Shown: positions 3,148-63,822 of the stretch, one piece after another
Layout of the letters: the number at the start of each line of letters is the position of its first letter
Numbering within the stretch: the stretch's first letter is position 1
Assembly (NCBI GenBank): GCA_030390025.1
Contig: CM059431.1
Location: 116,686,001 to 116,750,000 of the forward strand
Origin: Squalus acanthias
Lineage: Eukaryota
DNA length: 64,000 nucleotides
Direction of reading: 5' to 3'
The notes under the pieces: model-generated
Databases searched by the model: none
Seen by the model: the letters and a program-made list of their open reading frames with translations, nothing else
What the model was told of the DNA's origin: nothing
Position numbers and translations under genes: made by a program

Positions 3148-5957
3148 AAGTATGAACAAGGATTTCAGTGGCAGTGGGGGTGAGGTAGGGGCCCAGGCAA
3201 GCAATATTCCAGAGATGGAAGTCACAGGGCTGGATTTTGATACTGGGGCGGGTTGGGGTCGTGTTATCCACCCGACTGCAATTGGATGTGGGAGATTGAT
3301 GCAATTATCACCTAATTGGGCAATTGAATTCCAGCATGTGGGAACCCATGAAGATTAAACTAACTAGTGGGGGGGAGGTTCCTAGAGAGCAAATAATAAA
3401 AATGACAACAGAGAAGGTCATAGTCTTAGGTAGCAGTGGGGAAATTAAAAACCAGAGTGTGTCAGGAAGGGGCAGAAGGTATGGAGTAAAAGGTAAAGTA
3501 ATAAAAAGGGCAAAAGCAGGAACTAAGTGTCACAAAACATATTTGAAATTTCTCTATCTGAATGCATGTAGCATTCGTAACAAAATAGACGAGTTAATGG
3601 CAGAAATAACTACATATGGGTATGATCTTGTGGCCATTACAGAAACATGGCTGCAGGGTGACAATGCCTGGGAATGAAACATACCAGGTTATTTAATGAT
3701 CAGGAAGGACAGGCAGGAAGGAAGGGGAGGTGGGGTGGCTATGTTAATAAAGGAAGGAATCACTGTAATACAGAGAAATGATATTGGGTCAAAAGATCAG
3801 GATAATGAAACAGTTTGGGTGGAGATAAGGAATAATAAGGGGAAAAAAACACTAGTGGGCGTAGTCTATAGGCCTCCGAACAGTTGCAACTCTGTTGGAC
3901 GGAGTAGCAATCAGGAAATAGTTGAGGCTTGTAATAAGGGAACGTTTATAATTATGGGGGATTTTAACTATCATATTAATTGGACAAATCAAATTGGGCA
4001 GGGCTGCCTTGAGGATGAGTTCATTGAATGTATTAGGGATGGGTTTCTTGAGCAGTATGTAACTGAACCGACCGGGGGCAAGCAACCTTAGATCTGGTCC
4101 TGTGTAACGAGACAGGATTAATTAAAAATGTCCTAGTAAAGGATCCCCTTGGAATGAGTGACCATAACATGGTTGAATTCCATATTCAATTAGAGGGTGA
4201 GAAGGTTGGATCTCAAACAAGCGTGCTAAGCTTGAATAAAGGAGACTATGAAGGTATGTGAGTGGAATTGAGTAGAGTGGATTGGGAAAATAGATTAAAG
4301 GGAAAGACGATACATGATCAGTGGTGTACATTTAAGGAGTTATTTTACAACTTCCAAAAAAAATATATTCCACTGAGAAGAAAAGGGTGTAAAAGAAAAG
4401 ACAGTCATCCGTGGCTAAGTAAAGAAATTAAGGATAGTATTTGACTAAAAACAAGGGGCTCTAAGGTAGCCAAATCTAGTGGGAGGATAGAGGATTGGGA
4501 AAACTTTAAAAGACAGCAAAAAATAACAAAAAGATTGATTAAGAAAGGGAAGATAGATTATGAAAGTAAATTAGCAAAAAATATAAAAACAGATAGTAAG
4601 AGTTTTTATAGTTATATAGAAAGAAAAAGGGTGGCTAAAGTAAATGTTGGTCCCTTAGAGGATGAGACCGGGAAATTAATGGTTGGAAATATGGAGATGG
4701 CAAATACACTGAATGAATATTTTGTATCAGTCTTTACAGTAGAGGACACTAAGAATATCCCAACACTGGACAAACAGGGGGCTATAGGGGGGGAGAGGAG
4801 CTAAACACGATCAAAATCACTAAGGAAGTGGTACTTGGTAAAATAATGGGACTCAAGGCGGATAAATCACCTGGACCTGATGGCTTACATCCTAGGGTCT
4901 TGAGGGAAGTGGCGGTAGGGATTGTGGATGCATTGGTAATAATTTTCCAAAACTCCCTGGACTCAGCAAAGATCCCGGCAGACTGGAAAACTGCTAATGT
5001 AACACCCTTATTTAAAAAGGGCAGTAGACAGAAGGCTGGAAACTATAGACTGGTTAGCCTAACATCTGTGGTAGGTAAAATTTTGGGAGTCCATTATTAA
5101 GGAGACAGTAACGGGACATTTGGATAATCATAATTTAATAGGACAAAGTCAGCATGGTTTTATGAAGGGGAAGTCATGTTTGACAAATTTGCTGGAGTTC
5201 TTTGAGGAAGTAACATATAGGGTGGATAAAGGGGAACCAGTGGATGTGGTGTATTTAGACTTCCAAAAGGCATTTGACAAGGTGCCACACAAAAGATTAT
5301 TGCTTAAGATAAAAAATCACGGGATTGGGGGTAATATTCTGGCATGGATAGAGGATTGGCTATCTAACAGAACGCAGAGAGTTGGGATAAATGGTTCATT
5401 CTCAGACTGGCAATCAGTAACTAGTGGTGTTCCGCAGGGGTCAGTGCTGGGTCCCCAACTCTTTACAATCTATATTAACGATTTGGAGGAGGGGACCGAG
5501 TGTAACATATCAAAGTTTGCAGATGATACTAAGATGGGAGGGAAAGTAGTGAGTGAGGAGGACATAAAAAATCTGCAACAGGACATGGACAGGCTAAGTA
5601 AGTGGGCAGAGATTTTTTCAGATGGAATACAATACTGGAAAGTGTGAGGTTATGCACTTTGGCAGGAAAAATAGTAAAGCAAGTTATTATCTTAATGGCA
5701 AGAAACTGGAAAGTACTGAAGTACAAAGGGATCTGGGGGTCCTGGTGCACAAAACTCAAAAGGTTAGTATGCAGGTGCAGCAAGTGATTAAGAAGGCCAA
5801 TGGAATGTTGGCTTTCATTGCTAGGGGGATAGAATATAAAAATAGGGAGGTATTGCTTCAGTTGTACAAGATGTGGAGATGCCGGCGTTGGACTGGGGTG
5901 GACAAAAATGAGAAGTCGCACAACACCAGGTTATAGTCCAACAGATTTATTTTAAAT

Positions 5958-5993
5958 TACAAGCTTTCGGAGCTGTCGCTCCTTCTTCAGGTA
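5958..5993 (-). ncRNA. Minimal type-I hammerhead ribozyme motif in PLE1 inverted pLTR
   Basis: Reverse complement reads tac-CTGAAGA-a-GGAGC gaca GCTCC-GAAA-GC-TT-gta. Confidence 0.8.
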
Positions 5994-7306
5994 GGGTAGC
6001 TGTGAGAGAATCTCCCAGAATTCGCAATATAAACACAGAAAAAATGTATTCAAATCTTTCCCTACATCAAAGACACACTAAGAGCACAGCCAAGACAATG
6101 AGATGTGTCCCAGGGGGTCCAACGTGTCAAAACACCTGCTGGCTGCATATCCTCTCCATTTGTGTTTGGTTCTTGTGTTAGTTTTTTTTTAAAAAACCTG
6201 GAAAGACCGGCCATGATGTCAAGTCACGTTCTGTATCGTGACATGAATCCGATATCGCGATTGAGGCCATCCTCATGAGTGCGAAACTTGGCTATCAGTT
6301 TCTGCTCTATGATTTTGCGCTGTCGTGTATCCCGAAGGCCGCCTTGGAGAACGCTTACCCGCAGATCCGAGGCTGAATGCCCCTGACTGCTGAAGTGTTC
6401 CCCGACTGAGAGGCAACCCGCCTGCCTGGCGATTGTTGCGCGGTGTCCGTTCATACGTTGTCTCAGTGTCTGCATGGTCTCGCCGATGTACCATGCTCTG
6501 GGGCATCCTTTACTGCAACGTATCAGGTAGACAACGTTGGCCGAGTCACATGAGTATGTACCATGTACCTGGTGGGTAGTGTCCTCATGTGTGATGATGG
6601 TATCTGTGTCCATGATCTGGCATGTCTTGCAGAGGTTGCCGTGGCAGGGTTGTGTGGTGTCGTGGTTGCTGTTCTCCTGAAAGATGGGTAATCTGCTGCG
6701 AACGATGGTACTTTTGAGGTTAGGCGGCTGCTTGAAGGCGAGTGGTGGAGGCGTGGGGATGGCCTTAGCAAGGTGTTCGTCGTCATCGATGACATGTTGA
6801 AGGCTGCGAAGAACATCGGCGAGACCATGCAGACACTGAGACAACGTATGAACGGACACCGCGCAACAATCGCCAGGCAGGAGGGTTGCCTCCCAGTCGG
6901 GGAACACTTCAGCAGTCAGGGGCATTCAGCCTCGGATCTGCGGGTAAGCGTTCTCCAAGGCGGCCTTCGGGATACACGACAGCGCAAAATCATAGAGCAG
7001 AAACTGATAGCCAAGTTCCGCACTCATGAGGATGGCCTCAATCGCGATATCGGGTTCATGTCACGATACAGAACGTGACTTGACATCATGGCCGGTCTTT
7101 CCAGGTTTTTAAAAAAAACGAACACAAGAACCAAACACAAATGGAGAGGATATGCAGCCAGCAGATGTTTTGACACGTTGGACCCCCTGGGACACATCTC
7201 ATTGTCTTGGCTGTGCTCTTAGTGTGTCTTTGATGTAGGGAAAGATTTGAATACATTTTTTCTGTGTTTATATTGTGAATTCTGGGAGATTCTCTCACAG
7301 CTACCC

Positions 7307-7342
7307 TACCTGAAGAAGGAGCGACAGCTCCGAAAGCTTGTA
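7307..7342 (+). ncRNA. Minimal type-I hammerhead ribozyme motif in PLE1 forward pLTR
   Basis: tac-CTGAAGA-a-GGAGC gaca GCTCC-GAAA-GC-TT-gta: intact core, stem I tac/gta, stem II 5 bp, palindromic AGCT stem III. Confidence 0.8.
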
Positions 7343-9130
7343 ATTTTAAATAAATCTGTTGGACTATAACCTGGTGTTGTGCGACTTCTCAGTTGTACAA
7401 GGTATTGGTGAGACCGCACCTGGAATACTGCATACAGTTTTGGTGTCCATACTTAAGAAAAGACATACTTGCTCTCGAGTCAGTACAAAGAAGGTTCACT
7501 CAGTTAATCCCGGGGATGAGGGGATGGACATATGAGGAGAGGTTGGGTAGATTGGGACTCTACTCATTGGAGTTCAGAAGAATGAGAGGCGATCTTATTG
7601 AAACATATAAGATTGTGAAGGTGTTGGATTGGGTGGATGCGGGGAGGATGTTCCCGATGATGGGTGAAACTAGAACTAGGGGGCATAGTCTTAGAATAAG
7701 GGGCTGCTCTTTCAAAACTGAGATGAGAAGGAACTACTTCACTCAGAGGGTGGTAGGTCCATGGACTATGCTGCCCCAAAAAGCTGTAGAAGCTACATCA
7801 TTACATAAATTTAAAACAGAAATAGACAGTTTCCTAGAAGTAAAGGGAATTAAGGGTTATGGGGAGCGGGCAGGAATTTGGACATGAGTATAGGTTCGGA
7901 TTGGTCATGGCCCTGTGGGTAGCGCAGCGGGCCCAGGGGCCGTGTAGCCTGATCCTGCTCCTATTTCGTGAGTCCAATTCTGTTAGGTTCAGGAGATGGT
8001 TCTGTGATAGTAGATTGGCGGTTAGGATCAGATCAGCCATGATCTTATTGAATGGCGGAGCAGGCTCGAGGGGCCAATTGGCCTACTCCTGCTCCTATTT
8101 CTTATGTTCTTATGTTCTTATGAACCAATTAGTGTATTCAGTCTGAAAGTCGCCTCTGATGATGTCATCATTGCTGCTGCATTGAAGGTCTTCAGAGACT
8201 GCCTGGCCTTTGCTGTGAGAGGACCTGGATGCAAAATGAGCAGCAGCCCTAAGTCTGCTCCCAGATATTTTTACACCACCACTTCCAGATATGTCTCCTC
8301 CCCATCCATCCATATATGCATCCATCCACATAGCCATCCATATATGCATCTCCATAGCCAGCCAGCCAGCGTGCCAAATGTGCTCCCGCCAGGTTTCACA
8401 TTTGTGGTTCAGAACAGGCGTGCTTCACGTAGAAAAAGGGTGAAAATCACAAAGGCCTTTCAAAATGGCATTATAGAGGCAATTTAGTGCTTGTTAAAGG
8501 CCTTAACAGCCTATCCCGCCTCTAAGAGGCGGGACGGCGTCGGGACCAGCAGACACGATTTAATGAAAATTGCGTGGAGGCGGGATGGAGGCGGGCTCAT
8601 GCCCGCCCGCCAGTTTTCGCAATTTTAACCCCCCACACGCCTCCAAACCCACCTCCACGGGTCAATGAAAATCCAGCCCACATAGTCTGTTTCAACCTGA
8701 GTGGGTAGAAAGGAAAAGGGATGGAATCAGTGTCAAGGGAACAGAGTTTTTATATAACCAAATCTAAAAATTATGGCTTTAGTCTGAGCAGAAATGGCTT
8801 TTACTCCCTTAATATTCAGATGGTAGATAACCACCAGCAAAATAATTATGCAACTTAATGGTCTGTTTTCTGGGGAGTGTTTATAATGTATAAATAAAGT
8901 GAAGATTTTCTCTGTGCACTAGCTATGGCAAAATCAGGAACCTGTTCTTTCTGTTCTTTATAAACATGTTTACAATTTTGCTAAAGTACAAAGGAAATCT
9001 CCTATCTTGAAGGAATCAAGGAGTTCCCTGCTGTTCAAGACAGAATGCAAGATTGACACCTGGGAAATGAGGGCAGCCCACCACAAATGCAACTGCTGAC
9101 AGATGCCTTTCTGCAGAACCCCCAGGCTCA

Positions 9131-17875: not shown

Positions 17876-18644
17876 GAAGCTAATTTGAAAACCTAAACTG
17901 TGAAGCAGCATTCTGTTTTTCTTGTGCGGCGAGTTATTTCGGGCCGGCAATGTAACTCAAATCTGTCAATCCTTTGTAGCTGCAAATAGGTACTTGTCTC
18001 GCAACCTGTACCAGTGGAGTGACAACACTCCTAGCCTGTTTCACACCCCAGAAATAAGCATTGCACTTTACTTTGCAAAACATATGCTGAATATGCTCTA
18101 GTAGTGTGAAGGTGAGTAAGCTTTTCCCTTGATATTTTCTTTAAATATGTGCATAACCTTTGGATAAACCCACTGTTTTCTGTGTGCCACAATCCAATAA
18201 CAAGACAGTTTAACAACACGCCATTTGGTACAGATCGCACGTCCTAATTTGACCATTAGGTTCTCATGGGAAGTAAATCTGTTCAGAATGTCCAGCACAG
18301 CCCAAAATCTCAGTATCACTTCAAAAATGGGGCAATTTAAACCTATACGAGTTGAGGTAAAAATAAATGAAATTATATTTATATAGTCAGAGATATATTG
18401 CTTTGATGGCACAAGTACAATTTTCAGTAATAGATTGCTGTTCATGGTTAAGATAAGACATTTAACTTGATATTCTACCACTTTGATCATTCGATTCAAA
18501 GGGATGATAAAACGTGCTGGGAAAGTCAACAGGGTTTTGTTTACCTGTGTTTTTCTTTGTGGGAGCAGGAATCAATATTTTTGTTGATGTACAGCAACCA
18601 GGCCATTAAATGAGCTTTTCAAAAGCACTTAATTAATAATGTGG

Positions 18645-19013
18645 TTATGGTAGCATAGTGGTTATGTTACTGGACTAGTAATTCAGAAACGTGGACTAAT
18701 AATCCAGGGACGTGAGTTCAAAACTCACCATGGCAGCTGGGGAATAAAAAGCTACTATCAATAATGGTGACCATGAAACTACTGGATTGTTGTAAAAAAA
18801 CATCTGGTTCACTAATGTCCTTTCGGGGACTAAATCTGCAGTCCTTACCTAGTCTGGCCTATATGTGACTCCAGACCCACAGCAATGTGGTTGACTCTTA
18901 ACTGTTCTCTGAAATGGTGGCTCACCGCCACCTTCTCAAGCGCAATTAGGGATGGGCAATAATTGCATTTAATTGCCAGTGATGCCCACATCCCATGAAC
19001 AAATTTAAAAAAA
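18645..19013 (+). mobile_element. tRNA-headed SINE sharing 5' head and 3' tail with the LINE at 60214-63565
   Basis: A box TAGCATAGTGG and B-box-like AGTTCAAAACTC. Body matches about 60223-60521; tail GCTCACC..CCTTCTCAAG..AATTAGGGATGGGCAATAA..CCCACATCCCATGAA followed by an A-rich end. Confidence 0.85.
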
Positions 19014-26647: not shown

Positions 26648-27390
26648 AAATCTTTCGGAATTCTATAGTTACTATGGTAGACAGCACGGACAGGAAACTG
26701 TAATATATGAATACATAGTTATGGCTAGTAGACTCATCCACATTCATCCCAGACTGTGCAATGTGATTAGCCCATCCTCTAATGATGATAGAAAACGGAT
26801 GCCCTTCTTTTAAATTAAGATCCGTGAAGTTCAGATCCAAAGCTCAGGAGCTCAGCATGGAGGCAAACTGGCCTCCACTGCCACTACTACTTATTCCTCC
26901 ACATTTATGCTCTTATGTATCACCCAGTGCACCCTCCTATAACTCACGATCAGTCCATCCTGTATTAGGACAACTTGCTGTGTGAAGCCTTTTTAAGATG
27001 CCAATATGACCAGAGTATCAGTGGTAAGTTGAAGCTTGAATTTGTGCCATGCTGTCGATTTTGTGGCATGGTAACCCAGGGGCAGCTACTTGGCATAGGA
27101 AACATTTGGGCATTCTGACCTTAGTAGCTATCCTGAAGTTGGCCGTCTTCCTCCTTGGCAATCATGTCCTCTGGGCATTGTAAGCTATCTCCTACCTGGC
27201 ATTTTTTCTGGGGAGGCTGTTCTTGAGTACCAAACAAGGCAGCCTTCTTTTGTTTCATGTAATACAGTATCGACACAAGTTAGCAAGGCTATAAAAAAAG
27301 CATGATGTGGAGATGCCGGTGTTGGACTGGGGTGGACAAATGTGAGAAGTCGCACAACACCAGGTTATAGTCCAACAGCTTTATTTGAAA

Positions 27391-27427
27391 TCACAAGCTT
27401 TCGGAGCGCTGCTCCTTCGTCAGGTGA
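27391..27427 (-). ncRNA. Hammerhead ribozyme motif, PLE2 inverted pLTR (intact core)
   Basis: Reverse complement reads tcac-CTGACGA-a-GGAGC agc GCTCC-GAAA-GC-TT-gtga. Confidence 0.82.
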
Positions 27428-28237
27428 AGTGAAGAGATGCATATAGGCACAGCATATATAGTCAGAGAACACTGCCAGATGATTACAGTTAATCTTTCTA
27501 ACTGCCCTTTATCACACCTCGGCAGAGAGATAATCACAGCAATCCAAGGTGTGGATGGTGTCGAAACAGGTCAGTCAGGAAAACATTACATCAAAGACAA
27601 TGAGGTGGGGTCACAAGGGGTCAATTGTGGCAGATGCTGGGGTCTGTGTGGAAAACAAAAAACAGTTTTTGCTGGAAATCACAGCAGGTCCGGCCGCATC
27701 TGTGTAGAGAGAACAAGCCAACGACGACTCGAGTCTGGATGACTCTACGTCAGGTGGGGTTACATGTAGCGTGACATGAACCCAAGATCCCGGTTGAGGC
27801 CGTCCTCATGGGTGCGGAACTTGGCTATCAGTTTCTGCTCGATGAATTTGCGTTGTCGTGTGTCTTGAAGGCCGCCTTGGAGAACGCTTACCCGAAGATC
27901 GGAGGCTGAATGTCCTTGACTGCTGAAGTGTTCCCCGACTGGGAGGGAACACTCCTGCCTGGCGATTGTTGTGCGGTGTCCGTTCATACGTTGTCGCAGT
28001 GTCTGCATGGTCTCGCCGATGTACCATGCTCCGGGGCATCCTTTCCTGCAACCTATCAGGTAGACAACGTTGGCCGAGTCACATGAGTATGTACCATGTA
28101 CCTGGTGGGTGGTGTCCTCACATGTGATGATGGTATCTGTGTTGATGATCTGGCATGTCTTGCAGAGGTTGCCGTGGCAGGGTTGTGTGGTGTCGTGGTC
28201 GCTGTTCTCCTGAAAGCTGGGTAATTTGCTGCGAACT

Positions 28238-28274
28238 TCACCTGACGAAGGAGCAGCGCTCCGAAAGCTTGTGA
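28238..28274 (+). ncRNA. Hammerhead ribozyme motif at the 5' end of forward PLE2 (intact core)
   Basis: tcac-CTGACGA-a-GGAGC agc GCTCC-GAAA-GC-TT-gtga. Confidence 0.82.
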
Positions 28275-28361
28275 TTTCAAATAAAGCTGTTGGACTATAA
28301 CCTGGTGTTGTGTGACTTCTCACATTTGTCCATCCCAGTCCAACACCGGCATCTCCACATC

Positions 28362-31037
28362 ATGGCTACTATCGACACCACAAACTGCCGGCTCAAAGTG
28401 GAGAGGATCTCCAAGAAGATTGCGCATATCGACACAGACATCAAGTTTCTACAGAGATGCAAGAAAGCAGACAAGATCCCGAAAGGGCTACAGATCACGA
28501 ACCCACTCAAGTCGACATACAACACAGACTACGCTGAGAGACTCTGCCGTCGTACCTCTCGCACACTCCTCAACCATCTCGTACACCAGCTCTACAGCAG
28601 ACGCCGCAACCTCGAAACCAAGATAGAGTCCATGTTCTCAGCCTGTGCTCAGGACACAGCAGACCAGCTATGAGACACCACCAAACAGACGAGGCAACGG
28701 AACTATGCTACCTGCATGCACACCAAGAACAGGAAGCTTGAGAAATTCGGCATCACCACCAGCAGCAACCAAGCCTCTCCCGGTACCATGGTTGCAACCA
28801 CAGGGAAGTCCATCATCAACTTGTCCGACCACACCCTTCAACTAAACAAAATCGAAGTTCTCAGCTGAGGGCTCAATTTCTGTCCCACCACCAAAATGGA
28901 CCCCGTCGGTCTCGCGGCAGACACAGAGGAATTCATCTGGAGAATGAGGCTCCGGGAATTTTTCCACGAATCCCAAGATGTCAGCAGCGAACCCAATGAG
29001 ACAATCAATGATCCGGAACAGCAGACAGAGGGACCCGCAGTGCAGCAACCGAAGAAGAAAGAGTCAAATTGGACCCCTCCGGAGGGTTACTGGCCTGAGC
29101 TTGACATGTATGCTCAAGCTGTCAGGAGATGCATCAACGCCAGATTCATCAGCCGCACTCACAAGACTGTCCAGAATGTCACCCGAGCACAACGCAACGC
29201 CATCCACGCTCTCAAGACCAACCGCAACATCGTCATCAAACCAGCGGACAAAGGAGGAGCCATCATCATACAGAACAGAATGGACTATTGCAAAGAAGCA
29301 TACCGACAACTGGACAACCAGGAACACTACAGACAGTTACCCACAGATCCGACCATAGAACACACCCGCCAACTGAATAGACTGATCAAGACCTTCGATC
29401 CAGTCCTTCAAAGCATCCTACGTGCTCTCATCCCACGTACTCACCGCGTGGGAGACTTCTACTGCCTCCCAAAGATACACAAAGCCAACACACCCAGACG
29501 TCCTATTGTATCAGGCAACGGAACCCTGTGTGAGAACCTCTCTGGATACGTCAAGGGCATCCTGAAACCCATCGTACAGGGAACCCCCAGCTTCTGTCGC
29601 GACACTACAGACTTCTTACAGAAACTCAGCACCCACGGACCAGTTGAACCAGGAACACTCCTCGCCACGATGGACGTCTCGGCACTGTACACCAGTATCC
29701 CCCACAATGACAGCATCGCTGCGACAGCCTCAGTACTCAACACCAACAACAGCCAAACTCCAGATGCCATCCTACGACTCATCTGCTTCATCCTTGACCA
29801 CAATGTCTTCACCTTCAACAACCAGTTTTTTACCCAAACACACGGAACAGCCATGGGGACCAAATTCGCACCCCAATACACCAACATCTTCATGCACAAG
29901 TTCGAGCAAGACTTCTTCGCTGCACAGGACCTCCAACCAACGCTATACACCAGATACATTGACGACATTTTCTTCCTATGGACCCACGGTGAAGAATCAC
30001 TGAAAAGACTACACGATAACATCAACAAGTTCCATCCCATAATCAAACTCACCATGGACTACTCCTCAGAATCAGTTTCATTCTTGGACACACGAATCTC
30101 CATCAAAGATGGACACCTCAGCACTTCACTCTACCGCAAGCCCACGGACAACCTCACGATGCTCCACTTCTCCAGCTTCCACCCTAACCATGTTAAAGAA
30201 GCCATCCCCTATGGACAAGCCCTGTGAATACACAGGATCTGCTCAGACGAGGAGGAACGCGATAGACACCTACAGACGCTGAAAGATGCCCTCGTAAGAA
30301 CGGGATATGACGCTCGACTCGTCGATCGACAATTCCGACGGGCCACAGCGAAAAATCGCATAGACCTCCTCAGAAGACAAACACGGGACACAACCAACAG
30401 AGTACCCTACGTCGTCCAGTACTTCCCCGGAGCGGAGAAACTACGCAATGTTCTTTGCAGCCTTCAGCATGTCATCGATGACGACGAACACCTCGCTAAG
30501 GCCATCCCCACGCCTGCACTACTCGCCTTCAAACAGCCGCCTAACCTCAAACAGACCATCGTTCGCAGCAAATTACCCAGCTTTCAGGAGAACAGCGACC
30601 ACGACACCACACAACCCTGCCGCGGCAACCTCTGCAAGACATGCCAGATCATCAACACAGATACCATCATCACACGTGAGGACACCACCCACCAGGTACA
30701 TGGTACATACTCATGTGACTCGGCCAACGTTGTCTACCTCATACGTTGCAGGAAAGGATGCCCCGGAGCATGGTACATCGGCGAGACCATGCAGACACTG
30801 TGACAACGTATGAACGGACACCACGCAACAATCGCCAGGCAGGATTGTTACCTCCCAGTCGGGGAACACTTCAGCAGTCAAGGACATTCAGCCTCGGATC
30901 CGCGGGTTAGCGTTCTCCAAGGCGGCCTCCGAGACACACGACAACGCAAAATCGTCGAGCAGAAACTGATAGCCAAGTTCCGCACCCATGAGGACGGCCT
31001 CAACCGGGATCTTGGGTTCATGTCACGCTACATGTAA
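28362..31037 (+). pseudogene. PLE reverse transcriptase + GIY-YIG endonuclease (891 codons before the stop, one frame, 4 premature TGA)
   Basis: MATIDTT… start; INLS…GLNFCP; PADKGG; LATMDVSALYTSIPH; GTAMG; YTRYIDD; PCRGNLCKTC linker; VVYLIRC…WYIGET. Stops at 28671, 28866, 30225 and 30801. Confidence 0.93.
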
Positions 31038-31369
31038 CCCCACCTGACGTAGAGTCATCCAGACTCGAGTCGTCGTTGGCTTGTTCTCTCTACACAGATG
31101 TGGCCGGACCTGCTGTGATTTCCAGCAAAAACTGTTTTTTTGTTTTCCACACAGACCCCAGCATCTGCCACAATTGACCCCTTGTGACCCCACCTCATTG
31201 TCTTTGATGTAATGTTTTCCTGACTGACTTGTTTGGACACCATCCACACCTTGGATTGCCGTGATTATCTCTCTGCCGAGGTGTGATAAAGGGCAGTTAG
31301 AAAGATTAACTGTAATCACTGGCAGTGTTCTCTGACTATATATGCTGTGCCTATATCCATCTCTTCACT

Positions 31370-31406
31370 TCACCTGACGAAGGAGCAGCGCTCCGAAAGC
31401 CTGTGA
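31370..31406 (+). ncRNA. Hammerhead motif in PLE2 3' pLTR, U16.1 mutated (GAAAGCCTGTGA)
   Basis: Same as 28238-28274 apart from one T>C in the cleavage triplet. Confidence 0.7.
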
Positions 31407-33887
31407 CTTCAAATAAAGCTGTTGGACTATAACCTGGTGTTGTGCGACTTCTCACATAAAAAAAGCGAACCAAGAACTAGGGTTTATTTCTAGAGGATAG
31501 AACCTAAAAGTAGGGAGGTTATGCTAAACCTGTATCGAACCTTGGATAGACCACACTTAGAGTACTGCGTACAGTTCTGGTCACTGGAGAGGGTGCAGAG
31601 AAGATTTACAAGGATGATACCAGAAATGCAAGGGTATACATATCAGGAAAGGATGAATAAGCTGGGTCTCTTTTCTCTTGAAAAAAGAATGCTGTGGGGT
31701 GAACTAATAGAGGTCTTTAAAATTATGAAAGGTTTTGATAGAGTGGATACAGAGAGAATGTTTCCACTTGTGGGGAAGAGCATAATTGGAGGCCATCAAT
31801 ATAAGATAGTCACCAAGAAATCCAATAGGGAATTCAGAAGAAACTTCTTTACCCAGAGAGTGGTGAGAATGTGGAACTCGTGGTTGAAGCGAATAGTATA
31901 GAAGCATTTAAGGGGAGGCTAGTCAAGCATATGAGGGAGAAGGGAATAGAGGGTTATGCTGATAGATTTAGATGAGTAAAGACGGGAGGAGGCTCGTGTG
32001 GAGCATAAACGCCGGCATGGACTGGTTGGGCCGAATGGCCTGTTTTCGTGCCGTATATCCTATGTAATCCCATGTAGCATCTCCTAAAGAGCAGCATCCA
32101 TAGCTTCCGTTGCATGGTGATTGAAACCCTCCATTTTACTGCAGTTGTTTACCTTCAATTCTTGCTGGTCAGCTGAAACTGCAGCCTTTACATTGGTCAT
32201 TGCAGCTCTAAGTAGCTGTCAGCAAAGCAAGCACTACCATAGGCAGCCCATTGTGCTCAATATAAATAGGAAAAAAAAGTGCAAATGGTGGATTTTTAGG
32301 TGAGAATGGCTGTGTGAGCAAAGTTATTGAGATGCTTTCACATCGTGCCTCAATGGCAATTTATGAGATGGTCTAAATCGTGACAAATAACAATTGCAAG
32401 ACAACTGTCTGTTGTTCTGTAAAATAGTATTTTAAAAGCTTGCAATATTCTTGGAGGATTTCTCCAGTAATTTAAATATTGTAAATGACACTGTTTTCAA
32501 TGGTAGCCATACATCAGTGCCTCTGGTACCTTCCAACATAGGACTACTTTCTGAAAAATAAGGTTTGACAGCCCCCCGGTTGTTTGGACAGGAAGAAGGG
32601 CCAAATGATTCCCGCGTTATTTTCACCATAATGTTGTATGGGAATAATGACATGATATAATCAGCGTATAATCATCTTGTTGCATATTTGCAAAAGAACT
32701 CAAACTATATTTTGACAAATGCTTATGCTGAACTGGTCGCTTACATTAAAACTTTGTGACCTGTAATATCGGCCAAGGGCTTTCTGACAAAACCAAGAAA
32801 CGCAGACTCCAGAGACCCAACATCCTAATTTAATTTAAAATGACTAATGCAGCCTCTACACGGGAGAAAAACGGCTGAGGTAAAGGTTGACAGGAACAAT
32901 GTCCCCAGGTCTTCTTCCTGTAATGATAAGACTGCTGAGAAAACTCCAAGGAAAGGATAGTAGAATGCTCTAGTTCGAACTGCTCAAGGTCATCTGCTGA
33001 CACAGCACCTACTGCAGCTAGTAAACACTTGACTTAAAAATAATTAACACTTTGAGGAAAGCACTGTTCTGTGTTGGCTTTTAATGCATGTGGAAGGACT
33101 AGAGGTGCCTGCCCAAGTGCAGCTTCATGTGTTAGCTTCTGATGCAATAATATTTACCTAAATTGATGTTGTCCTTATATGTAATGTACAGCCCTGAAAA
33201 TGAAAGTGAATTACAAATGACCAGCCCTTGGGAGATGTGGGACATGAGTCTATCAAGGTAGTTCGAAGGTAACATACTCCATTCTTTTGGAAGGGGGTTG
33301 GCAGATCCCACTGCTTGTCTCATGACTAAAGAGATTAGCTCGTAATACTTACTGACACTTCAAAAAAATAAATAAGGAAGCACAGTGAAGGATAAGACCA
33401 ACAAAGATACTCATGGAATGGTCCTGGAGAGGACCCTTTCGCTGATGCCATCCTGGAATATTGCTATGTAGTGGCGATTAATATAAAGAATTGCTGGCTA
33501 CATAAAGAAGTCCAGTAAGTGAAGATAATTGAAAAAGAAGCCTGCAAAGTAAGGACAAGATACAGAGAGGCCAATTCCTGCCCACAGCACATTACAACTC
33601 AATTGAATTTGATTGACCATGGGGAGGGGGAATTGTGTTGCCATTATCTGAAAACAGAATTTATTTTGAAGGAAATGGTGTAATTGTTCCCTGTTGAATA
33701 TCTCCCCCCATAATATTCCTTAATAGTTAGCATTGTACAACTAAACTTCGATCTGGTTATGTTTTAACATTCAATTAAAGGGGCCATTTGAACCCCGCCT
33801 GCCCAGCGGAAACCAGGCGGGCAGACATTTAAAATTGCCGTGGGATTTATTCGCCAATCACCCACTCTTTTCCTTTAAGTTGCATAG

Positions 33888-36097: not shown

Positions 36098-36480
36098 ACA
36101 ATAGCAAAATACTGCGGATGCTGGAAATCCAAAATAACAACAGAAAATGCTGGAAAAACTCAACAGAGAGAGAAACAGAATGTAGAGCCATCCTTTGTTC
36201 CTTAACCTGTCCCATTACCACCTCCTCTTGCCTTTAATATCTCTTAATGTCTCTCAATGTCTCTTAATCTCTCCTGCTTTCTATCCTATCACTGGCCTTC
36301 CCTTTTGTTCTTTCATCCCCTCCCCCTTTTCCCAGCCCCTGAACTTGCTTTAAAATCTATTCCATTTCCTGCTTTTTTCCAGTTCTGACGAAAGTTCTTC
36401 GACCTGAAATGTTAACTCTGTTTCTCTCTCCACGGATGCTGCCTGGCCTGCTGAGTTTTACAGCGTTTTCTGTTGCTATT
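36098..36480 (+). mobile_element. Short PLE of a second family: inverted pLTR tip + forward pLTR, with hammerhead motif at about 36381-36416
   Basis: 15-bp TSD CAGGGTTATTCTTAT (36083 and 36481); ACAGAAAATGCTGGAAAAACTCA near the left end is inverted relative to TGAGTTTTACAGCGTTTTCTGT at the right end; agtt-CTGACGA…GAAA-TG-TT-aact. Confidence 0.8.
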
Positions 36481-46087: not shown

Positions 46088-46754
46088 AATGTGTGGGTCG
46101 GAGATAGGACTATAGCGCTATGCAAGTAATGTTATAAAGTAGAGCTCCCCCACTGAATACACGTATCAGGAATTTAGGCACACACTCCCAATGACTTTTG
46201 TTTCTTAAAATGAATAGAAAGAAAATCATGGAGAGTGTGTGCCTGAATTCCCAATTCGCACCCTGGACAGGCAAAGTTCTGTGATGGGAATGCTAATTTA
46301 TAAAATTGACTCTTAAAGCCTCGATTCTGAAATCTGCACTCCCATATTGGTGCAGCCTCACTGAATTTACCCTTGAGTTTTTGATGCTAGATCAAGTGGT
46401 CATACTGACATCATGATTAATGTCAGGAATTTCCGCGGGGATTTTTCATGATTGGCTGCTGTAACGTTGGCGGAAGATCGGTGGAAACCTCAGACAAACC
46501 ACGTAAAAGGGGTTTCCATTTACAATGAACTTACAATCACCAATCGGCAGAACTCCAAAGGAAATTTCCTTCGTTAGTCTTTAAGTGAAGCCTAGTCAAG
46601 GACAGGACATACCAAGATATATGGAACAGGCATTACTAAATGGGAAATCAATGGGAACCCTGATACAATCCCTCCAAATCACTTTGTTCTCCCAACATCC
46701 AACAGAGATAAACTCATGAGACATTTGTGCTTGAAACAAATGGCACCGATCTTG

Positions 46755-48158: not shown

Positions 48159-48264
48159 AGTTCTGATGAAAGGTCATCAACCTGAAATGTTAACTCTGTT
48201 CCTCTCTCCACAGATGCTGTCTGACCTGCTGAGTGGTTTCCAGCATTTTCTGTTTTTATTTTAG
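48159..48264 (+). mobile_element. About 100-bp PLE pLTR insertion (second family) starting at its hammerhead motif
   Basis: agtt-CTGATGA-a-AGGT catca ACCT-GAAA-TG-TT-aact; direct repeat ATGGACCAGTT at 48152 and 48265; homologous to 36380-36480. Confidence 0.8.
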
Positions 48265-53501: not shown

Positions 53502-54445
53502 CATGATGCGGAGATGCCGGTGTTGGACTGGGGTGGACAAAAATGAGAAGTCGCACAACACCAGGTTATAGTCCAACAGTTTTATTTGAAATCACAAGCT
53601 TTCGGAGCTGTTGCTCCTTCATCGGGTGAAGTAAAGAGATACAGAATCGCCAAAGCATATATAGATAGAGAACAATGCATGTGTACCTTACAATGGTAGA
53701 CGACTAAATTTAATCATCCTGACTCTTTATCTGCCGAGGTGTGACAAAAGGCAATCAGGTCAGCCAGGAAGGACCCACATCAAAGACATAGCAAGATACA
53801 ACTGAGACAATGAGGTGGAGTTACAGGGGGTCTAACGTGTCAAAAGCTGCAGTCAGTATGTAAAACGATAAACTTTAAAATTTTTACTTTTTTACTGGGA
53901 ATCACATCTGTGAACAAGCCAACGACGACTCGAGTCTGGATCACGTCATGTATTGTGACATAAACCCAAGATCGCGGTTGAGACCGTCCTCATGAGTGCG
54001 GAACTTGGCTATCAGTTTCTGCTCGATGATTTTGCGTTGTCGTGTGTTTCTAAGGCCGCCTTGGAGAACGCTTACCCGCAGATCCGAGGCTGAATGTCCT
54101 TGACTGCTGAAGTGTTCCCCGACTGGGAGGGAACACTCCTGCCTGGTGATTGTTGCGCGGTGTCCGTTCATACGTTTTCTCAGTGTCTGCATGGTCTCGC
54201 CGATGTACCATGCCGCGGTGCATTCTTTCCTGCAACGTATGAGGTAGACAACGTTGGCCGAGTCACATGAGTATGTACCATGTACCTGGTGGGTAGTGTC
54301 CTCACGTGTGATGATGGTATCTGTGTTGATGATCTGGCATGTCTTGCAGAGGTTGCCGTGGCAGGGTTGTGTGGTGTCGTGGTCGCTGTTATCCTCAAAG
54401 CTGGGTAATTTGCTGCGAACAATGGTACTTCTGAGGTTAGGCGGC
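53502..54445 (-). mobile_element. PLE3: 5'-truncated Penelope-like copy (GIY-YIG + pLTR) inserted in the Harbinger element
   Basis: GIY-YIG ORF 53941-54445. Same terminal CATGATG.GGAGATGCCGGTGTTGGACTGGGG as PLE2. Hammerhead at 53592-53629 with the core mutated to CCGATGA. Confidence 0.92.
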
Positions 54446-57564: not shown

Positions 57565-58680
57565 CCTGAGAGATCAATGGGAATCGGGGGGAAACTCTCC
57601 ACTGGCTGTAGTCATACCTAGCACAAAGGAAGATGGTTGTGGTGATTGATGGTCAATTGTCACAGCCCCAGGACATCGCTGCAGGAGTTCCTCAGGGCAG
57701 TGTCCTAGGCCCAACCATCTTCAGTTGCTTCATCAATGACCTTCCCTTCAACATAAGGTCAGAAATGGGGATGTTCGCTGATGACTGCACAGTATTCAGT
57801 GCCATTCACAACTCCTCAGATAATGAAGCAGTCCATGCCCGCCTGCAACAAGACCTGGACGACGTTAAGGCTTGGGCTGATAAGTGGCAGGTAACATTTG
57901 CGCCTCACAAATGCCAGGCAATGACTATCTCCAACAAGCGAGAGTCTAACCACTGCCCCTTGAAATTCAATGGCATTACCATCGCCGAATCCCCCATCAA
58001 CAACATCTTGGGTGTCACCATTGATGCAGAAACTTAACTGGACCAGCCACATAAATACTGTGGCAACAAGAGCAGGTCACAGGCTAGGTATTCTGCGGCG
58101 AGTGTCTCACCTCCTGACTCCCCAAAGCCTTTCTACCAACTACAAGGCAGAAGTCAGGAGTGTGATGGAATACTCTCCACTCGCCTGGATGAGTGCAGCT
58201 CCAACAACACTCAAGAAGCTCGACACCATCCAGGACAAAGCAGCCCGTTTGATTGGCATCCCATCCACCACTTTAAACATTCACTCCCTCCACCACTGGC
58301 ATACCGTGGCTGCAGTGTGTACCATCTATAAGCTGCACTGCAGCAACTCGCCAAGGCTTCTTTGGCAGCACCTCCCGAACCTGCGACCTCTTCCACCTAA
58401 AAGGACAAGCGCAGCAGGCGCATGGGAACACCACCACCAGGTTCCCCTCCAAGTCACACACCATCCTGACTTAGAAGTATATCGCTGATCCTTCATCGTC
58501 GCTGGGTCAAAATCCTGGAACTCCCTCCCTAACAGCACTGTGGGAGTACCTTTACCAGACGGACTGCAGTGGTTCAAGAAGGCGGCTCACCACCACCTTC
58601 TGAAGGGCAATTAGGGATGGGCAATAAATGCTGGCCTTGCCAGCGACGTCCACATCCCATAAATGATTTTTTTTTTAAAT
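57565..58680 (+). mobile_element. 5'-truncated LINE of the same family as 60214-63565 (CR1-group, distinct from the other CR1s here)
   Basis: GVPQGSVLGPTIF, MFADD, LGVTID.KLNWTSH; tail GCTCACCACCACCTTCT.AAGGGCAATTAGGGATGGGCAATAAATG. Confidence 0.9.
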
Positions 58681-60023: not shown

Positions 60024-63000
60024 TACCTCGCCTCTGAGTCAGAAGGTTGTGGGTTCAAGTCCCACTCCAGAGGCTTGAGCGCAAAAATCTAGATTGACAC
60101 TCCAGTGTAGTACTGAGGGAGTGCTGCGCTGTCGGAGGTGCCGTCTTTCGGATGAGACGTTAAACAGAAGCCCTGTCTGCTCTCTCAGGTGGACATTAAA
60201 GATCCCATGGCACGGTATGGGAATGGTAGCATAGATGTTTTGTTACTGGACTAGTAATCCAGAAGCCTGGACTAATGATCCAGAGACGTGAGTTCAAATC
60301 CCACCACGGCAGCTGGGGAATTTAAATTCAGTTAATTAAATCAATCTGGAATAAAAAGCTAGTATCAGTAATGGTGACCATGAAACTATCGGATTGTCGT
60401 AAAAACCCATCTGGTTCACTAATGTCCTTTAGGGAAGAAAACCTGCCGTCTTTACCTGGTCTGGCCTATATGTGACTCCAGACCCACAGCAATGTGGTTG
60501 AGTCTTAACTGCCCTCTGAAATAAGAAGAATAAAACCGGACGGACCATCCGGCATTGACCTCGGGACCGGCTACAGACACGACAAAGGCACACCCAGCCC
60601 AGTCGACCCTGCAAAGTCCTCCTCATGAACATCTGGGGACTTGTGCCAAAATTGGGAGAGCTGTCCCACAGACTAGTCAAGCAACAGCCTGACATAGTCA
60701 TACTCACAGAGTCATACCTTTCAGCCAATGTCCCAAACTCCTCCATCACCATCCCTGGGGTATGTCCTGTCCCACCGGCCGGACAGACCCACCAGAGGTG
60801 GTGGCACAGTGGTATACAGTCGGGAAGGAGTAGCCCTGGGAGTCCTCAACATTGACTCCAGGCCCCATGAAGTCTCATGGCTTCAGGTCAAGCATGGGCA
60901 AGGAAACATCCTGCTGATCACTACCTACCGCCCTCCCTTAGCTGATGAATCAGTACTCCTCCATGTTAAACACCACTTGGAAGAAGAGTAGCAAGGGCAT
61001 AGAATGTACTCTGGGTGGGGAATTTCAATGTCCATCACCAAGAGTGGCTCGGTAGCACCACTACTGACCGAGCTGGCCGAGTCCTGAAGGACATAGCTGC
61101 TAGAATGGGCCTGCGACAGGTGGTGAGAGAACCAACACGAGGGAAAAACCTACTTGACCTCGTCCTCACAAATCTAACTATCACAGATGCATCTGTCCAT
61201 GGCAGCATTGGTCGCAGTGACCACCGTACAGTCCTTGTGGAGACGAAGTCCCATCTTCACACTGAGAACACCCTCCAGCGTGTTGTGTGGCACTACCACC
61301 ATGCTAAATGGGATAGATTCAGAACAGATCCAGCAGCTCAAAACTGGGCATCCATGAGGCGCTGTGGGCCATCAGCAGCAGCAGAATTGTATTCCAGCAC
61401 AATCTGTAACCTCATGGCCTGGCATTTCCCTCACTCTACCATTACAATCAAGCCAGGGGACAACCCTGGTTCAATAAGGAGTGTATAAGAGCATACCAGG
61501 AGCAGCATCAGGCGTACTTAAACATAAGGTGCCAACCTGAGGAAGCTGCAACACAGGACTACATGCATGCTAAACAGTGGAAGCAGCATGCTATAGACAG
61601 GGCTAAGCAATCCCACAATCAACGGATCAGATCAAAGCTCTGCAGTCCTGCCACATCCAGTTGTGAATGATGGTGGACAATTAAACAACTAACGGGAGGA
61701 GGAGGCTCCCTGAATAACCCCATCCTCAATGAAGGCAGAGCCCAGCATGTGGGTGCAAAAGACAAGGCTGAAGTGTTTGCAACCATCTTCAGCCAGAAGT
61801 GCCGAGTGGATGATCCATATCAGCCTCCACCTGAGGTCTCCACCATCACAGAAGCCAGTTTTCAGCCAATTCGATTCACTGCACATGATATCAAGAAACG
61901 GCTGAGCGCACTGGATACAGCAAAGGCTATGGGCCCCGACAATATCCAGGCTCTCGTGCTGAAGACCTGTGCTCCAGAACTAGCTGCGCCTCTAGCCAAG
62001 CTGTTCCAGTGCAGCTACAACACTGACATCTATTCGACAATGTGGAAAACTGCCCAGGTATGTCCTGTCCACAAAAAGCAGGACAAATCCAATCCGCCCA
62101 ATTACCGTCCCTTCAGTCTACTCTCAATCATCAACAAAGTGATAGAAGGTGTCGTCGACAGTGCTATCAAGCGGCACTTACTTACCAATAACCTGCTCAC
62201 CGATGCTCAGTTTGGGTTCCGCCAGGGCCACTCAGCTCCAGCCTTGGTCCAAACATAAACAAAAGAGCTGAATTCCAGAGGTGAGGTGAGAGTGACTGCC
62301 CTTTTTTTTTTTTATTCGTTCATGGGATGTGGGTGATGCTAGCAAGGTCAGCATTTATTGCCCATCCCTAGTTGCCCTTGAGATGGTGGTGATGAGCCAC
62401 CTTCTTGAACCGCTGCAGTCTGTGTGGTGAATGCACTCCCACAGTGCTGTTAGGGAGGGAGTTCCAGGATTTTGACCCAGCGACGATGAAGGATCGGCGA
62501 TATCCTTCCATGTCAGGATGGTGTGTGACTTGGAGGGGAACTTGGAGGTGGTGGTGGTGTTCCCATGCGCCCGCTGCCCTTGTCCTTCTTGGTGGTAGAG
62601 GTCGCGGGTTTGGGAGGTGCTGCCGAAGAAGCCTTTGCGAGTTGCTGCTGTGCATCTTGTAGATGGTACACATTGCATCCATGGTACGCCGGTGGTGGAG
62701 GGAGTGAATGTTTAAGATGGTCGATGGGGTGACAATCAAGCGGGCTGCTTTGTCCTGGATGGTGTCGAGCTCCTTGAGTGTTGGAGCTGTGCTTATCCAG
62801 GCAATTGGAGAGTATTCCAAAACATTCCTTACTTGTGCCTTGTAGATGGTGGTAAGGCTTTGGAGAGTCAGGAGGTGAGATACTTGCCGCAGAATACCTA
62901 GCCTCTGACTTGCTCTTGTTGTCACAGTATTTATGTGGCTGGTCCAGTTAAGCTTCTGGTCAATGGTGACCCCCAGGATGTTGATGGTGGGGGATTTGGC

Positions 63001-63822
63001 AATGGTAATGCCATTGAATGTCAAGGGGGTGGTGGTTAGATTCTCGCTTGTTGGAGATATTCATTGCCTGGCACTTGTATGGCATGAATGTTATCTGCCA
63101 GTTATCAGCCCAAGCCTGAATGTTGTCCAGGTCTAATTACATGTGTGCATAGACTACTTCATTATCTGAGGAGTTCTGAATAACACTGAACACTGTGCAG
63201 TCATCAGCGAACATCCCCATTTCTGACCTTATGTTGGAGGGAAGGTCATTGATGAAGCAGCTGGAGATGGTTGGGCCTAGGACACTGCTCTGAGGAACTC
63301 CTGCAGCAATGTCCTGGGGCTGTGATGATTGAGCTCCAACCACCACAATCATCTTCCTTTGTGCTAGGTATGACTCCAGCCAGTGAAGCGTTTTCCCCCC
63401 AATTCCCATTGACTTCAGTTTTACTAGGGCTCCTTGATGCCACATTCGGTCAAATGCTGCCTTGATGTCAAGGGCAGTCACCCTCACCTCACCACCTTCT
63501 CAAGGGCAATAAAAGTGCTGGCCTTACCAGCGACGCCCACATCCCATGAACAAATACAAAAAAACTATCTATTTTGAAGAAGATCAGGAGAGTTACCCCC
63601 GATGTCCTGGCCAATATTTGTCCCTCAACCACCATCACTAAAACAGATTATCTGGTCATTTTCACATTGCTCTTTGTGGGAGCTTGCTGTGTGCAAATTG
63701 GCTGCCATGTCTCCTACATTACAACAGTGATTACAGTTTCAAAAAATGTACTTCATTGGCTGTAAAGCTTTGGGACATCCAGTGGTCATGAAAGGCGCTA
63801 TATAAGTGCATATCTTTCTTTT
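60024..63822 (+). mobile_element. Deu-domain SINE split into 60024-60213 and about 63569-63822 by the LINE insertion
   Basis: The intact copy reads GATCCCATGGCACTATTTTGAAGAAG. Here GATCCCATGGCAC ends at 60213 and CTATTTTGAAGAAG resumes at about 63569. Confidence 0.85.
60214..63565 (+). mobile_element. tRNA-headed APE-RT LINE: head and APE/RT-N on + (60214-62301), RT-C and tail inverted (62302-~63492), extra tail on + (~63487-63565)
   Basis: KVLLMNIWGL, VILTESYL, TTYRPP, GNFNVHH, SDH, KAMGPD, NYRP and QFGFR on +; LDIKAAFDR, GVPQ.SVLGP and MFADD on -. Confidence 0.9.

Follow-up and report, generated by a model that had tools for sequence, protein, structure and literature searches.

Which RNA is copied when a Penelope-like element (PLE) with a ribozyme motif in its terminal repeats (pLTRs) inserts into a genome: a cut RNA, a circle, or the uncut transcript? 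We address this question from one stretch of Squalus acanthias DNA (the window: 64,000 nucleotides, contig CM059431.1 of assembly GCA_030390025.1, positions 116,686,001 to 116,750,000). Its positions 28238-28274 hold a hammerhead motif of the minimal type-I kind, which belongs to the terminal repeat of a PLE of Neptune/Nematis type. The motif itself is ordinary for PLEs, and its function is called unclear in PMC8557442. The approximately 100,000 insertion ends in this genome can be read as a record of which RNA got copied, and they favor capped, uncut RNA. Window coordinates are collected in Table 1; element positions are counted with C3 as 0, which places the predicted cut between +28 and +29.

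The motif and the element that carries it

Exact matches to the family-1 core number 43,771 in the 3.7-Gb genome, with none for the reversed-pattern control. A chance match was rejected as a reading of the motif. Anchors placed 3' of the predicted cut and in family 2 have 97,899 and 19,898 genome matches, respectively, and again none in the controls. Within the window, the motif pattern gives 28 overlapping matches versus 6.4 ± 3.6 in 100 shuffles (0/100 reach 28), a count inflated by overlapping rows, and the genome-wide count is the better test. The monomer folding by itself is not significant (z = −1.2, with 23 of 200 shuffles equally good), and an Rfam scan of the window gave no hammerhead family among its 16 matches up to E 10, as expected for a motif without helix III.

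The class to which the motif belongs is known, since the extra A and the palindrome are already standard features of the min-HHRs described by Cervera and De la Pena in 2014 (PMC4209133), which have an extra, unpaired nucleotide after A9 (between 9 and 10.1) and a palindromic 15.2-16.2, no activity as monomers and low activity as dimers. The extra A, which had been considered unusual, is thus nothing out of the ordinary. Such motifs are reported there from the fish elements Xena, Poseidon, and Neptune, coelacanth (about 4,000), Xenopus (about 9,000), and reptiles, and the dogfish motif shares with them type I, the lack of helix III, a short helix I, presence in both pLTRs, and a mostly dispersed distribution. 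It differs in its higher copy number (43,771 in one family), its 5-bp stem II, and the lack of G10.1-C11.1 in family 2. The available text of PMC4209133 names no cartilaginous fish and maps no copy starts. In the literature searched, we found no account of the motifs in sharks and no mapping of copy starts relative to the cut; the variants of Lunse et al. 2016 and the supplements of PMC4209133 may include cartilaginous-fish sequences or NUU triplets. Non-LTR retrozymes (PMC7229834; bioRxiv 10.64898/2026.07.22.740005) also carry a type I hammerhead related to those of PLE pLTRs, and the hammerhead-repeat screen in the latter source included one chondrichthyan genome. We rejected a non-LTR retrozyme as the source of the motif, since head-to-tail tandem units, each with a hammerhead, are required, and the window and the examined loci show head-to-head stubs or ORF-linked repeats.

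With respect to the host element, we observe a single ORF with a reverse transcriptase (RT) domain (RVT_1, E = 9e-10) and, at the C terminus, a GIY-YIG domain (E = 4e-4, just under the curated cut-off, from the sister copy 6224-6922), together with pLTRs, an inverted truncated partner, an optional 30-40-bp tail, and a target duplication, as in EN+ PLEs. The linker fits the CX2-5CxxC pattern of the Neptune and Nematis clades, here taken jointly on the basis of the linker. This is in line with PMC8557442, where the C-terminal GIY-YIG, the CX2-5CxxC linker, the inverted 5'-truncated partner, and the 30-40-bp end tail are all found in Neptune/Nematis EN+ PLEs. The head-to-head unit 27302-31455 is one insertion because it is flanked by an 11-bp target duplication; the second family-1 insertion, 5867-7391, is likewise head to head, with an 11-13-bp duplication. 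In the full copy of the first unit, the two hammerheads lie 3,132 nt apart, and the ATG sits 91 nt after the predicted cut. A second PLE has family 2 as its pLTR: upstream of 6 of 61 copies lies DNA that resembles the endonuclease region at 31-45% identity.

Several smaller observations concern the same insertions. A dead hammerhead relic lies in the family-1 3' UTR. Its triplet is GUC, it has an inverted twin near 27757 (−), and its size would agree with capture of an old family-2 stub by the UTR; shorter remnants of it in other subfamilies form an erosion series. Insertions, both in the window and at many other loci, are often found within the ORF sequence of LINEs and have target duplications of 11-13 bp; several insertion flanks recur between loci, a hint of favored target repeats. 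A contig of run X11 terminates at 31432 with 18 A, 15 nt past the AATAAA; this end did not recur among the loose ends listed for the other 7 runs and was given no weight as evidence.

Table 1. Features of the hammerhead motifs and their host elements in the window
Feature	Position	Strand	Remark
Hammerhead motif, whole	28238..28274	+	Numbered by the established hammerhead convention
Stem I, 4 bp	28238-41/28271-74	+	
Catalytic core C3-A9	28242-28248	+	
Extra A following A9	28249	+	
Stem II, 5 bp with 3-nt loop	28250-54/28258-62	+	
GAAA	28263-66	+	
Palindrome, 4 nt	28266-69	+	
H17 (U28270) and predicted cut	28270/28271	+	From hammerhead numbering
First base of full-length copy, −7 from C3	28235	+	A of initiator-like TCACTTC; likely transcription start
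PLE ORF, 891 codons, 4 internal stops	28362..31037	+	RT domain, C-terminal GIY-YIG
CX4CX2C linker	30618-30644	+	Ahead of endonuclease
Dead hammerhead relic and family-2-like tail	31040..31125	+	In family-1 3' UTR; A9 and GAAA changed, 5-bp stem II kept
TATA box	31337..31343	+	30 nt 5' of the −7 A (31367); putative promoter
3' pLTR hammerhead, damaged	31370..31406	+	Same element as 28238 copy; U16.1 to C at 31401
AATAAA, +38 from C3	31412..31417	+	Candidate poly(A) signal
Inverted 5'-truncated partner	27302..28234	−	Endonuclease end, pLTR, intact hammerhead, long tail end
Intact hammerhead inside inverted partner	27391-27427	−	
Target-site duplication, 11 bp	27291..27301 (left); 31456-31466 (right)	+	
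Intact hammerhead, family 1	5958..5993	−	In second family-1 insertion, 5867-7391
Intact hammerhead, family 1	7307..7342	+	Other half of insertion 5867-7391
Hammerhead, family 1	53592..53629	−	Core U4 to C
Hammerhead, family 2, decayed	36381..36417	+	pLTR stub; inverted partner near 36120
Hammerhead, family 2, decayed	48159..48195	+	Stub of ~105 bp; 11-bp duplication overlapping stem I

Conservation of the motif among copies

The original prediction placed the motif at eight positions in the window, each with a CUGANGA core. All eight positions carry it, intact or decayed, and only four copies (5958, 7307, 27391, and 28238) are fully intact: the core at 53592(−) reads CCGAUGA, and the change in the 31370(+) copy costs it both the palindrome and the NUH triplet. 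Stem II of family 2, given as a 4-bp AGGT/ACCT, actually has 5 bp (A/G-GGUC with GACCU, 3-nt loop), and the lesion that made it degenerate at 36381 exists, with 48159 carrying one as well. The AUGU of family 2 was correctly taken for a decayed ACGU, the palindrome being CpG-decayed at 36381 and 48159 and reading ACGU in 29 of the 34 family-2 haplotypes listed. As for the covariation seen across the eight copies, one two-sided family-1 change holds (stem I pair 2.3-1.3), and the copies do not amount to eight independent tests, since they represent about four subfamilies of two families. Hammerhead numbering puts the predicted cut after U28270, which is right as a prediction. The U4-to-C core recurs as the trait of a subfamily, in 9 of the 251 parsed copies (53592-53629(−), L103, and L072 among the loci), often with a two-sided stem II change alongside.

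In the examined loci, 251 of 367 family-1 copies could be parsed, yielding 113 haplotypes from a pool that includes loci found by searches selecting truncated copies, as do the pools used below for ends, AATAAA, and head-to-head pairs. We observe that the 33 recurrent haplotypes (seen at least twice) have no broken stem II pairs (0/165), no broken inner stem I pairs (0/99), and no broken cores (0/33, with U4C allowed), while among singleton haplotypes 12/400 stem II pairs and 14/80 cores are broken (Fisher, P = 0.02 and P = 0.009, respectively). Pairing is found in 96.6% of cells of the recurrent haplotypes, versus 17 to 48% for controls with slid partners; 10 of the 33 lack pairing at the outer position of stem I. 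Two helix pairs are altered on both sides, with G-U intermediates present, and four further pairs on one side, the two-sided count being reached in 66 of 500 shuffles. These pairs were counted on family 1 only (33/37 rows), as the joint alignment set family 2 out of register.

The catalytic positions are fixed, N7 is any of the four bases, and loop II ranges from 3 to 9 nt. In family 1, the palindrome 15.1-16.1 is intact, without helix III, in 247/251 copies, the extra nucleotide between 9 and 10.1 is A in 249/251, and the 10.1-11.1 pair is G-C in 32/33 recurrent haplotypes and G-U in 1/33; family 2 deviates, with A-U or G-U at this pair. A U is tolerated at position 17 of hammerheads. The triplet is GUU in family 2 and CUU (205) or CUC (41) in most of the 251 family-1 copies, so that U at 17 is in the majority without being fixed, and the view of the NUU triplet as unusual finds no support. 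The proposal that a minimal type-I hammerhead is kept by selection in the pLTRs of PLE families fared better: selection on the motif between subfamilies is supported, and in two families. The support for selection and pair-keeping is modest and tree-dependent, the changes being few when counted as events along a tree.

Start and end points of the copies

Across the genome, raw counts of copy starts are 1,186 at −7, 233 at −3, 183 at +29, and 72 at +33, with 1,051 for +24 to +37 together. These counts come from filters that demand mismatched flanks; after a nominal correction that assumes random flanks, we obtain ~6,325 starts at −7 and ~868 at +29, with controls of ~736 at −3 and ~228 at +33. 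Starts at the cut site are thus ~7-fold below the −7 peak, and +29 is ~3.7-fold higher than the corrected mean over +24 to +37 (237 a position). The excess at +29 is partly explained by the GTGA common to copy and partner, and the 100 rows listed for +24 to +37 are nearly flat by eye (+28, 11; +29, 10; +31, 11; +24, 12); some cut RNA may be used as template. The downstream anchor was used to select 111 copies, of which 9 start exactly at −7 and 0 at +29, with 22 of the 111 extending past the 400 nt scored and some nominal starts (e.g., −25, −95, −176, and two at −3) reflecting subfamily divergence rather than truncation. The full-length copy in the window spans from −7 across both motifs.

Position −7 is the likely start of transcription, its promoter-set nature being read from the shift of the boundary with the TATA box. 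In the subfamilies that start at −7, the TATA lies at −37 to −40 (30 to 33 nt before the start); in others it lies at −43 to −45, and there, among 100 starts listed and read by eye, with a filter that reaches −15 at most, ~34 fall at −13 to −15, 33 at the palindromic site −10, and 13 at −7/−8. A promoter and start within the pLTR are also known from the Adineta vaga Penelope (PMC3846280), whose pLTR has TATATATA and an initiator-like TCACT, and from the Drosophila virilis Penelope (PMC2377424), whose promoter, unlike the dogfish one, is TATA-less and internal, with an intron. A pLTR TATA with initiator is thus already in print (PMC3846280), as is the use of uncut template in vitro (PMC11167929).

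A G precedes −7 in 86 of the 100 rows listed (by eye), whereas the −3 control has G in 54, A in 31, and C in 15 (P = 0.0005); given this G-rich control, a composition-only null for the G bias (38 to 42%) is too lenient. In 30 loci at −7, the G is absent from both partner and target in at least 4, is readable as the partner's base in ~20, and is replaced by A in 4. An extra G is described as a mark of capped full-length L1 insertions (PMC11702581), and the starts at −7 with their preceding G point to a capped, uncut template RNA. Among the junctions, the most frequent one is palindromic about −7 with a single base at its center, as would be expected if two cap-copying cDNAs annealed by their last three bases. 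Family-2 starts form a broader cluster (−2 to −6 in 29/30 loci) without clear G bias. Inner junctions with short repeats of the first 5 to 20 bases (L004, L006, L129, L275, and L284) suggest that template jumping occurs repeatedly at the 5' end of the RNA.

The outer ends of copies fall at +80/81 in 115 and at +119 to +123 in 110 of the 348 scored. Among close head-to-head pairs, the two halves are unlike in loop II in 16/48, ~3 of these 16 by CpG decay alone, which argues for two templates rather than the fold-back of one strand. Two unlike halves per pair fit priming from both target strands, as in PAc, the Poseidon element of Anolis carolinensis (PMC11167929). That element shares with the dogfish one a hammerhead near the ORF start, two RT start sites about one tail apart, extension of both target strands, and an uncut RNA template (in vitro there, from the genomic record here), and its hammerhead cuts only with protein. 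It differs in belonging to the Poseidon clade and in an ORF that begins within stem II, as opposed to an ATG beyond the cut and a CX2-5CxxC linker in the dogfish element. The dogfish ends lend in vivo support to this in vitro result on the lizard element, speak against a main template of cut or circular RNA, and supply exact positions for the likely start (−7), the predicted cut (+28/+29), and the ends (+80 and +121).

Template choice and a proposed role for the cut

We consider it probable that the motif is a conserved hammerhead of two PLE families, which likely sits within 40 bases of the 5' end of a capped transcript and is likely copied uncut. RNA polymerase II would start at −7, directed by the TATA box and initiator; the element protein would use both nicked target strands to prime reverse transcription at two outer sites (+80 and +121); each cDNA would run back through the uncut motif as far as the cap; and the two cDNA ends would be joined head to head. 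By analogy with known systems, the ribozyme would be weak and, unless dimeric or accompanied by the element protein, would not cut after U17. We prefer to see in the cut a slow off-switch, through which the 36-nt capped leader would be lost. A cut at the 3' repeat would part the ORF from the priming sites, and the RNA would be limited or rerouted by it, not prepared as the usual template.

The AATAAA at +38, present in 247 of the 252 family-1 copies scored, raises an LTR-like variant of this scheme, which we regard as unlikely: a retrovirus-like U3-R-U5 logic, with the hammerhead in R acting as a decapping switch and not as a maturation step. The TATA box would belong to U3, R would run from the cap (−7) through the hammerhead and AATAAA to about +58, and the priming sites at +80 and +121 would lie beyond. 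All cDNAs would then begin near the RNA 5' end and yield an 87-130-nt strong-stop product with a cap-copied C as its last base, which would either integrate, giving the very abundant head-to-head stubs, or, after a jump to the 3' R, copy promoter and ORF.

PLE hammerhead variants reportedly cleave as dimers (work attributed to Lunse et al., 2016). In the classical model, proposed in PMC4209133 and PMC6765202, the two hammerheads of one transcript cut as a dimer and the circularised monomer RNA is the main template. The selected core and palindrome (the latter intact in 247/251) and the small excess of starts at the cut site are what this model would lead one to expect, and copies derived from circular RNA would resemble random truncations. 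A circle has no fixed stop at −7, however, and a cut linear RNA stops at +29, while the peak is at −7 and the full-length window copy runs from there over both motifs. Furthermore, anole ribozyme mutants insert in vitro all the same (PMC11167929), and the active dimer fold (−20.7 kcal/mol) is 2.5 kcal/mol poorer than two monomers (−23.2 kcal/mol), so that we hold circular RNA to be an improbable main template.

We give an equally low probability to the loss of cutting, with the motif kept as a 5' leader for binding by, or folding with, the element protein. Such a leader would agree with a template that appears uncut, with the weak helices, the U4-to-C subfamily, and the A-U or G-U of family 2 at 10.1-11.1, and with the statement in PMC11167929 that no RNA-seq reads were found at the cut in anole. 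Against it, invariance is seen at the positions of the catalytic core, with N7 free, as catalysis predicts, and the anole motif cuts with protein and is sensitive to C3 and G8 changes (PMC11167929).

That −7 marks an RT stall or a fold-back (self-priming on the antisense strand) and no transcript start is very improbable: the commonest junction is indeed palindromic about −7, and PMC3846280 suggests self-priming for the rotifer PLE head-to-head palindromes, but the unlike halves call for two templates, solo copies with target duplications begin at −7 too, and the boundary follows the TATA box. Head-to-head palindromic junctions are common to A. vaga and dogfish, with antisense self-priming favored in the former (PMC3846280) and two sense-templated, cap-reaching cDNAs favored here by the mixed halves and the G bias.

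The window also contains repeats other than the PLE insertions. A LINE RT region is directly duplicated over 2.4 kb with 97.8% identity (1-2423 and 3445-5870). A long imperfect hairpin at 46165-46255, with sub-threshold scores to microRNA families, is probably a small inverted-repeat element, and sub-threshold tRNA matches in a repeated element at 18644-18735 and 60236-60312 are consistent with tRNA-derived SINEs. A 1.1-kb inverted repeat with 88% identity (57574-58666 and 62316-63412) flanks a LINE-like region.
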